From contig JBCNUU010000001.1 in NCBI GenBank assembly GCA_039630545.1, positions 192,001-256,000 on the forward strand: 64,000 nucleotides of DNA. Direction: 5' to 3'. The translations under genes were made by a program, and so were the position numbers. The DNA is from Endomicrobiia bacterium (GTDB taxonomy: Bacteria; Elusimicrobiota; Endomicrobiia; DTEH01). Each line of letters begins with the position of its first letter. The first letter of the stretch is position 1. Shown piece by piece: positions 24,442-59,552 of the stretch. Below the pieces are notes generated by a model, which saw only the letters and a program-made list of their open reading frames with translations, was not told the DNA's origin and searched no databases.

Positions 24442-24942
24442 ATGAAATGTCCTTTTTGTGATGAAAACGATACCTATGTTGTGGATACCAGAACTCTGAA
24501 AGGAGCTTCTGTAATTCGTAGAAGAAGAATTTGCAAAAAATGCCAAAAAAAGTTTACTACATATGAACGTGTAGAAGAACCTTTAGTAAATGTTATTAAG
24601 TCTGACGGGAGAAGAGAACCTTTTGATGCAAACAAGATAAAAGAAGGAATATTAAAAGCAGTAGAAAAACGTCCTGTGACAGTTGAGGAGGTAGAAAAAA
24701 TTGTTGCTGAAGTTCAACAAGAAATCTCAAAAAAGTTTGTTTTAGAAGTTCCAAGTTCTCTTATTGGGAAAATTGTTTTAGAAAAGCTTTTTCCTGTTGA
24801 TCCTGTAGCATATGTGAGGTTTGCATCTGTTTATTACCAGTACGATAGTATAGATAAATTTCTTAAAGAGCTTAAAGAACTTAAAAAGAGATATTTATTA
24901 AAAGATAAAAAAAAGAAAGGTAATAAAAATGCAAAATCATGA
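24442..24942 (+). CDS. nrdR: transcriptional repressor NrdR
   Basis: MKCPFC...IRRRRIC...FTTYE zinc ribbon, ATP-cone (VIKSDGRREPFD), VAYVRFASVY. Confidence 0.96.
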   Translation: MKCPFCDENDTYVVDTRTLKGASVIRRRRICKKCQKKFTTYERVEEPLVNVIKSDGRREPFDANKIKEGILKAVEKRPVTVEEVEKIVAEVQQEISKKFVLEVPSSLIGKIVLEKLFPVDPVAYVRFASVYYQYDSIDKFLKELKELKKRYLLKDKKKKGNKNAKS

Positions 24943-26053
24943 AGTTATAGAAACATTATATGATGAAATAAAATCTTCAGGATATAACTTAGAAGAGGTT
25001 GTTTCTGGTGATGTTGTGCCTCCTGATACGGTGAGAGAAAAAATTAACAAATTAGTCTCTCTGGATCCTAATTTTTATTCTAATCTACTATCAAAACTTT
25101 TATCTGAGGAATTTGATGAGGAAGTAGCTAAAAAATTATGGTTTGAGATTCTTGAGCATAAATACCGCATTTCGGAAAAATTAGGAAGAAATGTGGGAAT
25201 TAGAGTTGCTACATTGGATTATCTTGAAAATATAAAGAAGATTATCAAAGCTCCTAAAATTATAGAAGAAGAAGAATTTATAAAAACTTTAAAATTAGCT
25301 ACAAGAGACCCCCTTACAGGGCTGTACAACAGAAGATATTTATTTGACTATGTTAGACAGTTGATAAGAAAAAAACAAAGATTTTCCTTAGCTTTTTTAG
25401 ATCTGGATGGATTTAAAAGATATAATGATAAAGAAGGACATCAAGCAGGTGATGTGATTCTTCAAGAATTTGCTGCAGTTTTAAAATTAAGTTTTAACGA
25501 TGAAAACAAATATATAGTTGGAAGATATGGTGGTGATGAATTTATTTTATGTATGCTTGATGTAGATAAAAGAACAGCTCAGGATATCCTGGATAAATTT
25601 AGACAGGAAATTCAAAGACAGTTTGCTGAAATAAAAATAACAGTAAGTATAGGTGTATGTGAATACAATCCGGATCTTGAAAAATCAGATGTTAAAGATT
25701 TTGATGAACTTATTGAAAAAGCTGATGAACTTTTGTATAGAGTAAAAGAATTTGGTGGGAACAAGGTGTTTAGATTAAGAACAATATTTTTTTATTATAC
25801 TCCGGAGGGAAATTCTGCTCCTAAAGAGGTGGCGGTGGTGGGTGATTTTAATAACTGGGATAGAAAAAAAGGGCAGATGCAGTTCATATCACAACAAAAC
25901 TTGTGGTGCAAAAAAATGTTACTTAAACCGGGAGTTTATAAGTATAAGTTTCTAATAGATACAAACATATGGTTAGCAGACAAAAATGCTAAATTTTTTG
26001 CTGATGATGGATTTGGTGGTAAATGTTCTGTCATCACAGTAGCTGAGAAATAA
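24929..26053 (+). CDS. diguanylate cyclase (GGDEF) with a C-terminal glycogen-binding CBM48 (AMPK-beta-like) domain
   Basis: DPLTGLYNRR, DLDGFKRYND, RYGGDEF (GGDEF codons 25529-25543). C-terminal VAVVGDFNNW...PGVYKYKFLID..W..D...DGFGG. Confidence 0.9.
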   Translation: MQNHEVIETLYDEIKSSGYNLEEVVSGDVVPPDTVREKINKLVSLDPNFYSNLLSKLLSEEFDEEVAKKLWFEILEHKYRISEKLGRNVGIRVATLDYLENIKKIIKAPKIIEEEEFIKTLKLATRDPLTGLYNRRYLFDYVRQLIRKKQRFSLAFLDLDGFKRYNDKEGHQAGDVILQEFAAVLKLSFNDENKYIVGRYGGDEFILCMLDVDKRTAQDILDKFRQEIQRQFAEIKITVSIGVCEYNPDLEKSDVKDFDELIEKADELLYRVKEFGGNKVFRLRTIFFYYTPEGNSAPKEVAVVGDFNNWDRKKGQMQFISQQNLWCKKMLLKPGVYKYKFLIDTNIWLADKNAKFFADDGFGGKCSVITVAEK

Positions 26054-26095: not shown

Positions 26096-26278
26096 ATGTC
26101 AGAAATTCTTGTGGTAGTAAGTAAAATAAAAAAGATGGTAAAAGAGCAAGGTTTAAGAACAGGTGAAGGTTTTATAGAAGCTCTATCTAAAAAAGTTGAA
26201 GAAATGGTGAAAAATGCTGCCCAGAAAGTGAAATCTGAAGGTAAAAAGAAAACCCTCGGAGCTGAAGATTTAATGTAA
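26096..26278 (+). CDS. bacterial histone-fold protein (Bdellovibrio Bd0055-like singlet)
   Basis: 60-aa basic protein: EILVVVSKIKKMVK (alpha1), RTG loop, long alpha2, KKTLGAED (L2/alpha3). Strong SD GGAGGT at 26082-26087. Confidence 0.88.
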   Translation: MSEILVVVSKIKKMVKEQGLRTGEGFIEALSKKVEEMVKNAAQKVKSEGKKKTLGAEDLM

Positions 26279-27382: not shown

Positions 27383-27895
27383 TTATGCCCATTCTCTTAC
27401 AGGATAGTTATTTTTGTAAACAATTTTTGTTTCGTATATTGGTTCAACAATCTCGTCAGGTTTAAACCATAATTTTATTTCTCTTTCTGCTGATTCTTCA
27501 GAATCAGAACAATGTATAACATTTTCCATAATTCCTTTTTTGTTAATTCGTCCATATGCTCCTCTTATAGTGGTAGGATCGGCTTCAAGAGGGTTAGTAG
27601 CACCAGCTATTTTTCTTACTCTCTCTATAGCATCTACTCCTTCATAAACAAATACTAATATGCGTTCATATTCTGGACCGTATATTTTACCGGAAAAATA
27701 TTCATATAAATCATCAAAGAATGGTTTGTCAACAAGATGTGCATAATGTTTTTCTGCCAGCTCTCTTGTTACTTTTACAACTTTTGCACCAATTATTCTT
27801 AATTTAGCTTCAGAAAGACGTGTTAGTATGTTGCCTGTTAATGATTTTACTAAGGCATCTGGTTTTATTATTATTAAGGTATACTGGTGTTTCAT
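27383..27895 (-). CDS. ndk: nucleoside diphosphate kinase
   Basis: IIKPDA, HYAH..KPFF, GATNP, TIRG, N..HCSDS.ESAEREI..WF. Confidence 0.95.
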   Translation of the reverse strand: MKHQYTLIIIKPDALVKSLTGNILTRLSEAKLRIIGAKVVKVTRELAEKHYAHLVDKPFFDDLYEYFSGKIYGPEYERILVFVYEGVDAIERVRKIAGATNPLEADPTTIRGAYGRINKKGIMENVIHCSDSEESAEREIKLWFKPDEIVEPIYETKIVYKNNYPVREWA

Positions 27896-56653: not shown

Positions 56654-58444
56654 ATGATTAAAAAAAGTTTACAACAAATTCTTGTGGAATATTTTGGTTT
56701 TACTCCTCAAGAAGTAGATGTGCTTAATAAAGAAGCTGAAAAAAATAAAATAATGCTTATCCAGTATATAGTCAACACTAAAAAAGTAGATAAACATAAG
56801 TTACTTAAGGTATTATCTTCTGAGTGGGAAACTAGAGTTGTTGACCTTTCAGACATAGAAGTAGATACCGATCTTGCAAAAATTATTTCAGTTGAGACAT
56901 GCAAACGTTACAAGTTAGTTCCTTTTAGTAAAGATGAAAATATTTTATGTGTAGCCATGGTTGATCCTAGAGATCTTTTCGCTATAGAAGATATAGAATT
57001 TAGAACAGGACTTAAAGTTCTTCCATATTTTGCACTTCCTGACGATGTAAAAGAAAAAATAGAACAGTTATATGGCAGCTATGATCTAGTTTATGAAGAT
57101 TCAATACAAGAACAACGGGTTTATATCCCTAATGAAAATATTTTAGAAGATGCTCAGGAATTGACACAGGAACTACTTGCAAGCTTAGATGTTTCAGAAG
57201 AAATTTCTATAGAACACCAGAAAGAAGAAGTAACAGATATTATGCAAGTAGATGCATCAGCACCTGAGGTTGAGAAACTTGTAAATGCTATAATTCTTGA
57301 AGCAGTAAGATTAAAAGCATCTGATATTCATATTGAACCTTTTGAAAAAAAAATTATTGTAAGGTATAGAGTGGATGGACTTTTAAGAAAAGCATCTTTT
57401 AAAATACCTATGGTATTTAAAAATGCTCTTATATCTAAAATAAAAATAATGTGTGGAATGAATATTGTTGAACGCAGAATCCCACAGGATGGTAGATTGC
57501 AAGTAAAAGCAAAAGGGTTACCCTTAGAGTTTAGAGTGAATGTAGTACCCACTGTTTATGGTGAGAGTGTTGTAATGCGAATGCTGGATAGATCTGGTGC
57601 TTTATTACCTTTGGAGGCTTTAGGTTTTTTACCGGATACTTTAGAAAAATTTATAGAGTTACTTAATCGTCCATATGGACTTATTTTAGTATGTGGTCCT
57701 ACAGGTTCTGGTAAGTCTTTCACATTGACTGCTGCATTACAAAAAGTAAAAGACCCTGCTGAGAAAATTCTTACTGCAGAAAACCCAGTTGAGTATGAGT
57801 TAGATGGAGTTGTACAGGTTCCTATAAATCCGGATCTAAAAATGGGTGATAAAAAATTTGATTTTGCTATGGCTTTAAGAGCTTTTTTACGACAGGATCC
57901 GGATATAATAATGGTTGGAGAAATAAGAGATCAGGAAACGGCACAGGTAGCAATGGAAGCTGCGTTGACTGGCCATCTGGTGCTTTCTACAATTCACACA
58001 AACGATGCACCTTCTGCAGTTGCAAGGTTGTATGAGATGGGAGTGCCTACATATCTTATTGCCAATACCTTAGAAGGTGTTCTTGCTCAGAGGTTGATAA
58101 GGACATTATGTAGTGAATGTAAACAACCAGATCTTACGGCACCTCAAGGAGATTTGTTGAATATGCTTAAAGAATATAATATAGATTTTATATCAGCAAA
58201 TTTTATGAAACCGGTAGGTTGTAAAAAATGCAACAATATAGGAATGAAAGGAAGAACAGCAATTCACGAGCTTCTTGTAATGGATGAGGAATTAAGAGAT
58301 TTATGTTTAAAAGAAGTTTCTGCTAAAAAAATAAGAGAAGTTGCAATAAAAAATGGTATGAGGACTTTATTGGTTGATGGATTAATAAAAGTTACTAAAG
58401 GAATTACTACTTACTCTGAAATTTTGGCAGTATGTCAAAGATAA
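56654..58444 (+). CDS. PilB/GspE-family type IV pilus/T2SS assembly ATPase
   Basis: ASDIHIEP, RYRVDG, PQDGR, GPTGSGKS, LRQDPDIIMVGEIRD, TGHLVLSTIHTN, Cys4 motif. Confidence 0.94.
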   Translation: MIKKSLQQILVEYFGFTPQEVDVLNKEAEKNKIMLIQYIVNTKKVDKHKLLKVLSSEWETRVVDLSDIEVDTDLAKIISVETCKRYKLVPFSKDENILCVAMVDPRDLFAIEDIEFRTGLKVLPYFALPDDVKEKIEQLYGSYDLVYEDSIQEQRVYIPNENILEDAQELTQELLASLDVSEEISIEHQKEEVTDIMQVDASAPEVEKLVNAIILEAVRLKASDIHIEPFEKKIIVRYRVDGLLRKASFKIPMVFKNALISKIKIMCGMNIVERRIPQDGRLQVKAKGLPLEFRVNVVPTVYGESVVMRMLDRSGALLPLEALGFLPDTLEKFIELLNRPYGLILVCGPTGSGKSFTLTAALQKVKDPAEKILTAENPVEYELDGVVQVPINPDLKMGDKKFDFAMALRAFLRQDPDIIMVGEIRDQETAQVAMEAALTGHLVLSTIHTNDAPSAVARLYEMGVPTYLIANTLEGVLAQRLIRTLCSECKQPDLTAPQGDLLNMLKEYNIDFISANFMKPVGCKKCNNIGMKGRTAIHELLVMDEELRDLCLKEVSAKKIREVAIKNGMRTLLVDGLIKVTKGITTYSEILAVCQR

Positions 58445-58472
58445 TTCATTCAATAAGTATCGTAAGATTTTT

Positions 58473-59552
58473 ATGAGCAAATCAAAAGAATTTGAAGAAA
58501 TTTTTGAAATAGTACGGGATCTTACTTCAACTTTAGATGTAGATACTTTGCTTAAAAGAATATCAGAAGCAGCTGAAAAACTTACAAATTCTACTGCCAG
58601 TTCTATTATGTTGGTGGATGATGACAAACAACATCTTTATTTTAAAACAGCAGGTGGTGAGAAAGGTTCTATAGTTAAAAAAATAAAAATTAAAATTGGT
58701 GAAGGTATAGCAGGTAGTGTAGCACTTAATAAAAAATCAGAAATAATAAATGATGTTTCAAAAGACACAAGATTTCTGGCCACAATAGACCAGCAAAGTG
58801 GATTTAAAACTAAATCAATTTTAGCTGTGCCTATATTATACTCAATCAATAATCGAACAGAAGTAATAGGTGTTCTGGAAGTGTTAAATAAAAAAGATGC
58901 AGGAGGATTTGGAGAGGAAGATAAAAAAATGTTAGAAAATTTAGCAAGTTTAGCATCTATCGCTATAATGAATGCCAAAATTTGGGAGGATCAAAGGAAT
59001 TTTTTTAACTTCGCAACAGAATTTATAATCTCAGCTATAGAGACGATCAGGTCAAAACAAAAAGGATTTTACTGGAAAATAGCACAAACTGCTACAAAAA
59101 TAGCTAAAAAATTAGGATTGGAACCAAGTATGGAAGAATATAAAAATATATATTTTGGAAGCTTATTGCATGATATTGGATATTTATCTTCTAAATTTAA
59201 GTCAGATAATGGTATAGAAAAAGTGAATTTAGAAAAACTGCATGTTATTATAGGTGCAGAGATGGTAAGTAACATAAGTTTGTTTAAAGGATTACTACCA
59301 ACAATAAAATTTCACCATGAAAATTATGATGGTACGGGGTACCCAGAAGGGCTTTCTGGAGATAAGATTCCTCTATCAGCAAGAGTTATATCTTTAGCAG
59401 AGTACATTGAAGAATTAAAAATAAATTTTTTAGATAAAAACCAAATTATCAGTTTGTTAAAACAAAACAGTAACATTAAGTTTGACCCTTCACTAGTTGA
59501 GATAGCAATAAATATATTATCTGAAGAATCTGAAAATTTAATGGGGGTGTAG
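58473..59552 (+). CDS. GAF + HD-GYP domain protein (degenerate)
   Basis: GAF (GEGIAG, IINDV..D.RF, SILAVPI, VLEVLNK) plus LLHDIG, HHENYDGTGYP, FDP. Confidence 0.9.
   Translation: MSKSKEFEEIFEIVRDLTSTLDVDTLLKRISEAAEKLTNSTASSIMLVDDDKQHLYFKTAGGEKGSIVKKIKIKIGEGIAGSVALNKKSEIINDVSKDTRFLATIDQQSGFKTKSILAVPILYSINNRTEVIGVLEVLNKKDAGGFGEEDKKMLENLASLASIAIMNAKIWEDQRNFFNFATEFIISAIETIRSKQKGFYWKIAQTATKIAKKLGLEPSMEEYKNIYFGSLLHDIGYLSSKFKSDNGIEKVNLEKLHVIIGAEMVSNISLFKGLLPTIKFHHENYDGTGYPEGLSGDKIPLSARVISLAEYIEELKINFLDKNQIISLLKQNSNIKFDPSLVEIAINILSEESENLMGV

Follow-up and report, generated by a model that had tools for sequence, protein, structure and literature searches.

Does a bacterial diguanylate cyclase take its input from the glycogen of the cell? 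The question is raised by a gene in a 64,000-nucleotide stretch of an Endomicrobiia genome (contig JBCNUU010000001.1, positions 192,001–256,000), referred to here as the window, whose product joins a GGDEF domain to a CBM48 domain of the AMPK β-subunit type. The original prediction, made from the DNA alone, described a candidate glycogen-sensing c-di-GMP system and stated that no characterized enzyme of this architecture was known. A literature search, with subscription journals and supplements outside its scope, likewise found no description of a GGDEF–CBM48 protein. Second-messenger control of bacterial glycogen has been called a large gap (PMC9530166), and the nearest published link found is the activation of Streptomyces venezuelae GlgX by c-di-GMP (PMC9530166). 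That link runs in the opposite direction: in S. venezuelae the signal acts on the store, whereas here the store is proposed to act on the signal.

The protein is a likely α-glucan-tethered diguanylate cyclase that combines known parts in a conserved fusion. When all readings are combined, some input from α-glucan is probable. The more specific reading that we prefer, with a little less than even confidence, is a soluble cyclase whose CBM48 would bind glycogen and thereby tether and tune c-di-GMP synthesis at the carbon store. If true, a store-controlled cyclase would reverse the published arrow and provide a bacterial parallel to glycogen sensing by AMPK. The cyclase is small, soluble and single-chained, which makes the proposal directly testable.

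Domain architecture of the cyclase

The protein consists of a helical N-terminal module (N-module), a GGDEF domain and a C-terminal CBM48 domain (Table 1). The reading frame, the coordinates and the motifs quoted in the original prediction are all present in the ORF. The N-module contains the motif EILEHKYRISEKLGRNVG (residues 73–90). The GGDEF domain contains DLDGFK (residues 158–163) and RYGGDEF (residues 199–205), the latter preceded by ENKYIVG, and the CBM48 domain contains VVGDFNNW (residues 303–310), PGVYKYKFLID (residues 334–344) and DGFGG (residues 360–364). The GGDEF domain, predicted to be intact, matches PF00990 over residues 124–279 with 119.2 bits (cut-off 23.8) and TIGR00254 with a score of 125.2 (cut-off 37.4), and its metal- and guanine-binding residues are present. 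The C-terminal domain matches AMPK1_CBM (PF16561) over residues 299–373 with 39.9 bits (cut-off 26.8) and falls slightly below the cut-off of the broader CBM_48 model (PF02922; 21.5 versus 22.4 bits). The profile match and the fold both identify an AMPK-type CBM48 that starts around residues 282–284, at window position ∼25772, in agreement with the ∼25778 of the original prediction.

In an AF2 model calculated from a 63-sequence alignment (mean pLDDT 92.8, pTM 0.68), a helical N-terminal part and the GGDEF domain are followed without a linker by a β-sandwich (strands 280–282 and 284–290); at this pTM, how the domains sit relative to one another is uncertain. The highest 19-residue Kyte–Doolittle mean of the cyclase is 0.68, indicating no transmembrane segment, and a mean above 1.6 is reached in none of the 84 family proteins, which contain no hydrophobic segment. 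The helical N-terminus and the cytoplasmic location of the original prediction are borne out by these features, while its word "system" is too wide for what is a single protein and not a multi-gene system. Promoter-like sites occur at the level of shuffled sequence (30 versus 35.7) and carry no information.

Table 1. Positions of the cyclase gene, its domains and other features (window coordinates unless a locus or contig is named)
Feature	Position	Strand	Remarks
Whole gene	24929..26053	+	374-aa ORF; N-module, GGDEF and CBM48; soluble
Helical N-module	24929..25294	+	Residues 1–122; related to the C-terminal part of DUF4032
GGDEF domain	25295..25771	+	Residues 123–281
I-site position	25502..25513	+	ENKY in place of RxxD
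GGDEF motif	25529..25543	+	Residues 201–205
AMPK-type CBM48	25772..26050	+	Residues 282–374
nrdR	24442..24942	+	Directly upstream; 14-nt overlap with the start of the cyclase gene
60-aa basic protein	26096–26278	+	Weak histone-fold match (PF00808, E 0.031)
ndk	27383–27895	-	Downstream neighbour
PilB/GspE ATPase and GAF-HD_5 protein	56654–59552	+	N-terminal MshEN motif of the ATPase looks degenerate
GalT-like gene and glgA	G000:C1:49300–51829		No glgC above cut-off
Anti-sigma-like AMPK1_CBM proteins	L001:1507–2055, L004:1474–2070		Window's genome, other contigs
Anti-sigma-like AMPK1_CBM proteins	L119, L122, L132, L134, L138, L139		
Small N-anchored CBM48 proteins	L002:1264–1734; L123, L125, L129, L130, L142–L144; L118, L126, L127, L135, L137		Across carriers
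N-module–GGDEF–enzyme I	L155:5250–7871	-	Genome G117, window's class
N-module–GGDEF–enzyme I	L156:2856–5585	+	Genome G179, window's class

Distribution and origin of the fusion

A protein search limited to the 7,997 top word-sharing candidates gave 84 best matches with 39–100% identity, and 83 of these 84 (query included) combine a GGDEF domain with a CBM48-type domain. All 14 named family members belong to Elusimicrobiota, a phylum that has been little studied. The gene is carried by 21 of 301 Elusimicrobiota genomes, in 20 as a full protein and in one cut by a contig end. These carriers span seven families inside and outside the window's class, comprising all 10 genomes of the window's family, 3 of 3 and 4 of 5 genomes of two others, and four singletons. 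Purifying selection acts equally on the three domains, with pN/pS values of 0.23, 0.23 and 0.22 (eight same-genus genes, synonymous sites near saturation). This equality and the presence of both domains in 83 of the 84 best matches argue against a chance fusion.

A midpoint-rooted FastTree phylogeny was built from 143 N-module–GGDEF sequences, 42 with the CBM (every second of the first 84) and 101 without. The 42 CBM-bearing cyclases form one clade with a support of 0.996. Two CBM-less proteins are nested within this clade; P0130, in which HEAT repeats precede the N-module and GGDEF domain, is nested there without a CBM. The topology points to a single ancient fusion of GGDEF and CBM that would have been followed by later losses of the CBM. 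No GGDEF–CBM protein from outside the family was observed among the best 120 of 521 CBM-profile matches. A contig scan for members outside the phylum, dominated by generic GGDEF patterns, found no GGDEF–CBM fusion among the 80 loci listed, of which five encode an N-module and a GGDEF domain. Three loci that appeared to combine GGDEF and CBM (L087, L091 and L093) were rejected because they contain no CBM; two of them look like tandem GGDEF genes.

The CBM48 domain and its putative sugar-binding site

Structural matches of the CBM have Z scores of 11.4–12.7 overall and include SEX4. The β-subunit CBM48 domains of AMPK, SNF1 and SnRK1 (1z0m, 1z0n, 2f15, 6b2e and 2qlv) align with Z scores of 11.5–12.7. 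The alignment to AMPK β2 (6b2e) has a Z score of 11.5 and an rmsd of 1.7 over 82 residues, and a Z score of 12.7 is obtained both for Snf1 Sip2 (2qlv) and for the N' domain of a Pyrococcus amylase (4aef). As in these kinases, the module of the cyclase is a non-catalytic, putatively glucan-binding unit on a signalling enzyme, but it is fused in cis to a bacterial GGDEF domain instead of being carried by one subunit of a kinase trimer. The closest solved sequences are the N' CBM48 domains of archaeal GH13 amylopullulanases and cyclodextrinases (5ot1, 4aef and 4aee), which share the DG[FY]GG loop, and the best match is the Thermococcus kodakarensis pullulanase (5ot1). Unlike the cyclase module, these domains are attached to hydrolases and keep an Asn where the cyclase family has a Cys.

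A profile alignment to 1z0n equates W310, K340, W348, F362, G363, G364 and C366 of the cyclase with AMPK β1 residues W100, K126, W133, L146, G147, T148 and N150, respectively. W100, K126, W133 and N150 are critical to glycogen binding by the AMPK CBM (PMC4032982, PMC6274970). The seven AMPK β1 residues form the binding pocket, and the W100G and K126Q substitutions abolish glycogen binding (PMC4032982, PMC6274970, PMC4625611). In the cyclase family, W310, K340 and G363 are kept in 83 of 83 proteins and W348 in 82, and the full W-K-W triad is found in 82 of 83. Among 47 CBM domains of 14 GH13 and GH57 enzymes, which served as a positive control, 43 contain the triad and four have the Lys replaced by Arg. 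As a negative control, 23 membrane-bound CBM48 paralogues encoded by the carriers were compared, and the full triad occurs in none; this count omits L115, a contig-edge fragment with a full triad and a missing N-terminus. Among 46 similar small transmembrane proteins, the Lys survives in just 2. Since the fold persists in paralogues that lack the full triad, folding alone does not demand these residues, and the cyclase family kept them. This selective retention supports putative glucan binding by the cyclase and is the best evidence for it.

The correspondence to AMPK is incomplete at three positions, where L146, T148 and N150 are replaced by Phe, Gly and Cys. The N150 equivalent, C366, is the only conserved Cys position of the family (Cys in 79 and Asn in 1 of 83 proteins), whereas Asn occupies this position in all 43 aligned enzyme CBMs. 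By profile and fold, the protein is a member of the AMPK1_CBM family that lacks the N150 and T148 features. Their loss would lower the case for an AMPK-type glycogen binder more than the case for an α-glucan binder. The glucan tie of the original prediction is strengthened by the conserved W310, K340 and W348 and weakened by the Asn150-to-Cys replacement, which it had overlooked.

Glucan metabolism of the carrier genomes

The glycogen synthase gene glgA adjoins the cyclase gene in none of the 17 glgA-bearing carriers; the two genes lie on different contigs or are separated by 47 kb and 166 kb. Of the 21 carriers, 17 have glgA, and across the phylum it occurs in 241 of 301 genomes. With no enrichment in the carriers, co-occurrence is uninformative. 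Glycogen gene context was accordingly rejected as support, and the link to carbon storage in the original prediction gains no support from genomic context.

In the window's genome (95% complete), glgA adjoins a GalT-like gene and a phosphorylase gene adjoins one of three GH57 genes; no GH13 enzyme, no GlgX like that of S. venezuelae and no glgC above cut-off were found. The proposed check for glgABC and glgP thus returned glgA and a glucan phosphorylase but no glgC. The GalT-like nucleotidyltransferase gene precedes glgA, and this pair without glgC suggests a non-canonical glucosyl-donor route. GH57 enzymes are found in 13 of 13 carriers checked and a phosphorylase-type match in 12, two of them weak. 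GT5 glgA above cut-off is absent from four incomplete carrier drafts (G069, G103, G107 and G211; 95, 98, 96 and 79% complete, respectively), and neither genome of genus g18 has glgA. All four drafts keep GH57 and three keep phosphorylase, which was not found in G107 (96%) either.

These four carriers bear on an alternative in which the CBM would sense soluble maltodextrins produced by GH57 enzymes and phosphorylase, and not the granule. The CBM would then work as an allosteric switch, with its specificity tuned by the Asn-to-Cys replacement. The persistence of GH57 and phosphorylase in glgA-less carriers, the glgA-less g18 genomes and the intact W-K-W platform are consistent with such sensing, and the linker-free junction of GGDEF and CBM in the AF2 model would suit direct coupling. 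However, the glgA-negative genomes are all incomplete drafts (79–98%), most carriers do have glgA, and the window's genome contains no detected GH13 amylase. We consider maltodextrin sensing unlikely and retain glycogen tethering as the preferred reading.

CBM48 paralogues of the carriers

Besides the cyclase, the carrier genomes encode two or three other AMPK1_CBM proteins. In those that are anti-sigma-like membrane proteins, mostly encoded behind ECF sigma genes, the AMPK1_CBM is C-terminal and has Met, Val, Leu or Ile at the K126 equivalent. Small N-anchored membrane proteins bear a lone degenerate CBM48 and are of two kinds, in which either the Lys is replaced by Asn and W133 is lost or W100 is replaced by Phe or Tyr. 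ParA/MinD-type ATPases and subtilase-type proteases carry a C-terminal CBM48 that keeps the W-K-aromatic pattern (P0124, P0347 and P0357; P0122 and P0123), and are further non-amylolytic uses of CBM48.

Reuse of the fold with degenerate sugar sites on the anti-sigma-like and membrane-anchored proteins of the same lineages raises the alternative that the CBM48 of the cyclase has been repurposed for protein docking, self-association or a non-glucan ligand, which would leave a cyclase without carbohydrate input. Glycogen is not required for every action of AMPK-type CBMs, as described for yeast Gal83 (PMC4032982) and for the binding of AMPK to debranching enzyme (PMC6274970). The family-specific Cys at the N150 position, the lack of a genomic tie to glucan genes and the two nested CBM-less proteins fit such a change of function. 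Repurposing is nevertheless rather improbable: the near-invariant W-K-W triad and G147 equivalent form the pattern of real glucan binders, unlike in the paralogues, and plant AKINβ2 has neither the Lys nor the Asn and still binds starch (PMC4032982).

Genomic neighbourhood of the cyclase gene

nrdR is located directly upstream of the cyclase gene in 11 of 21 carriers. In the window's genome it overlaps the start codon, and the two genes are likely on the same transcript. The genes downstream in the window's genome encode a 60-residue histone-like protein, an AAA_17-type protein, a dCMP-deaminase-like protein and Ndk. The 60-residue basic protein, encoded directly 3' of the cyclase in 6 of 10 genomes of the window's family, is likely a bacterial histone, as judged from its weak profile match. 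In another class, the order is nrdR-nrdJ-dcd-gene-guaB-guaA-purC. The gene is followed by pyrR-pyrB in three genomes and preceded by carB in one.

Such neighbours suit a reading in which the cyclase belongs to an nrdR/nucleotide regulon and responds to nucleotide or replication status, with the N-module as the sensor and the CBM as a passive anchor. The N-module offers invariant surface-type polar residues for this role (K78, R87, N88, D97 and N101), but it is also found in ∼1,000 clusters in other settings. Because the neighbours are housekeeping genes, their order may reflect inherited inertia, and a nucleotide input is put no higher than the repurposed CBM.

The N-module

The N-module shares the helical motif HK..SE.LGR.VG...A.LDY with DUF4032 (PF13224), a term for which no paper was found in the literature searched. 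The match is confined to the C-terminal region of the model (positions 120–161 of 163; residues 60–101 of the cyclase) and, at 22.0 bits, lies under the cut-off of 23.8, whereas the homologues P0012, P0039, P0053 and P0091 pass it with 26–30 bits. With a profile of the N-module (residues ∼7–126) and E ≤ 0.001, 1,056 clusters (50% identity) are matched. The 150 matches listed contain 143 new proteins, in 114 of which a GGDEF domain directly follows the module and none of which has a CBM; seven consist of tandem DUF4032-like repeats without GGDEF. In the 36 of these 143 proteins that were checked with Pfam, the extra domains are PilZ in eight, PTS enzyme I in four, and REC, HEAT, RelA/SpoT and TilS_C in one each. 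The N-module is thus a widespread GGDEF partner and a large family of its own, a point overlooked in the original prediction.

In the AF2 model, the last helix of the N-module (residues 114–125) runs into the DxLT turn of the GGDEF domain. GGDEF domains require a dimerizing input domain (PMC7288161). From this requirement and the helix entering the DxLT turn, we infer by analogy that the N-module is likely the dimerization and input domain of the enzyme. A sequence search for a solved relative gave no PDB match below E 0.67. In fold searches, Foldseek gave no match at E ≤ 0.001, the best VIA Z score among 48,161 chains was 4.2, and no usable Atlas match was obtained. A missing match does not prove a new fold. 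The module merits a structure determination since it stands at the head of cyclases in ∼1,000 clusters and these searches found no solved counterpart.

Several relatives carry the module in other combinations. P0212, P0230, P0251 and P0253 join the N-module and GGDEF domain to a whole PTS enzyme I, which scores above the TIGR01417 cut-off, and these proteins are candidate PEP- or carbon-sensing diguanylate cyclases. The fusion gene in G117 lies inside a trehalose cluster with the order otsA-mscS-otsB-fusion-DUF5752-treT. P0152, P0163, P0164, P0215, P0229, P0246 and P0250 are stand-alone proteins of 230–305 residues with two copies of the N-module/DUF4032 motif and no enzyme domain. In P0154, a RelA/SpoT synthetase domain precedes the N-module and GGDEF domain.

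The cyclase domain

The GGDEF domain shares its fold with the soluble cyclases PleD (1w25), WspR (3bre), DgcR (6zxc), SadC (4wxo) and GcbC (5euh), and the highest Z score, 23.3, is obtained for GcbC with an rmsd of 1.6 over 156 residues. It also has in common with them the DxLT turn that follows a helix and the residues for catalysis and guanine reading. The inputs of these enzymes are REC, PAS or GAF domains, whereas the cyclase combines the helical N-module with a C-terminal CBM48. By all essential residues, the protein is a member of the GGDEF family. D158, D160, K163, N166, D175, R199, G201-G202-D203-E204, D266 and K273 do not vary among the 83 proteins. Hypr GGDEF enzymes (cGAMP synthases) have a Ser at the guanine-reading position of PleD D344; the equivalent D175 is kept in every member, and the Hypr-type Ser is absent. 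D158, N166, D175, D203 and K273 correspond to PleD D327, N335, D344, E370 and K442, which have metal- and guanine-binding roles (PMC7288161). Since these residues are invariant, the expected product is c-di-GMP from GTP.

Some features of the domain differ from the canonical soluble cyclases. The position of the phosphate-binding Arg of PleD, R446, is Gly277 (Gly in 74, Lys in 5 and Arg in 4 of 83 proteins); R446 is not among the residues called essential in a review (PMC7288161). The I-site is missing from the window's protein, which has ENKY instead, and from all 33 of its closest homologues. The original prediction was correct on this point for the protein and its close kin. Absence of the I-site was rejected as a family property because RxxD is present in 42 of 83 members; its loss is a lineage event and not part of the design.

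A weak or inactive GGDEF domain, in a protein that would serve on glycogen as an adaptor binding GTP or c-di-GMP, could be suspected from the Gly at the R446 position, the variable motif Phe (Met, Leu or Ile in 30 of 83) and the RxxD that could let half of the family bind c-di-GMP, but it is very improbable given metal- and guanine-binding residues that are invariant across two classes and a window protein without RxxD.

A proposed model for glycogen-tethered c-di-GMP synthesis

The preferred reading, in which CBM48 holds the cyclase on glycogen, gains from the fusion of the same N-module–GGDEF unit to PTS enzyme I, a second carbon-status partner. It is weakened by the Cys at N150, the missing link to glycogen genes, the nucleotide-metabolism neighbours, the R446-to-Gly replacement, the uncertain arrangement of the domains, the four carriers without GT5 glgA and the glycogen-independent action of AMPK-type CBMs. 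From the anatomy, the conservation and the genomic inventory, we infer glucan binding, activity, direction of control and targets as follows. Dimerization would be brought about by the N-module and its last helix, the role that input domains have in other GGDEF enzymes. The CBMs of the dimer would then bind neighbouring α-1,4-glucan chains of a glycogen particle, so that the two GGDEF halves become concentrated or oriented. Activity would rise when stores are full, activation being somewhat favoured over an AMPK-like inhibition. With the product-feedback I-site lost in the window's lineage, the N-module and the CBM would be left to control the enzyme.

A wider version of the proposal is a bacterial AMPK-like glycogen gauge, in which CBM48 would turn the size or branching of the store into c-di-GMP. 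The cyclase would then belong to a large, so far undescribed class of ∼1,000 clusters, built on the N-module of no solved fold and GGDEF, that reports carbon status through exchangeable C-terminal modules (CBM48, PTS enzyme I, PilZ and REC). This version is doubtful.

The c-di-GMP produced would be read by pilus ATPases bearing MshEN domains and by PilZ proteins. The window's genome encodes six GGDEF, three HD-GYP-type, three PilZ and three MshEN-family proteins. Two of the three MshEN-family proteins have good N-terminal motifs, judged against the motif consensus. In the window, the next gene after that for the PilB/GspE ATPase with a seemingly degenerate MshEN motif encodes a GAF-HD_5 protein whose GYP region is altered.
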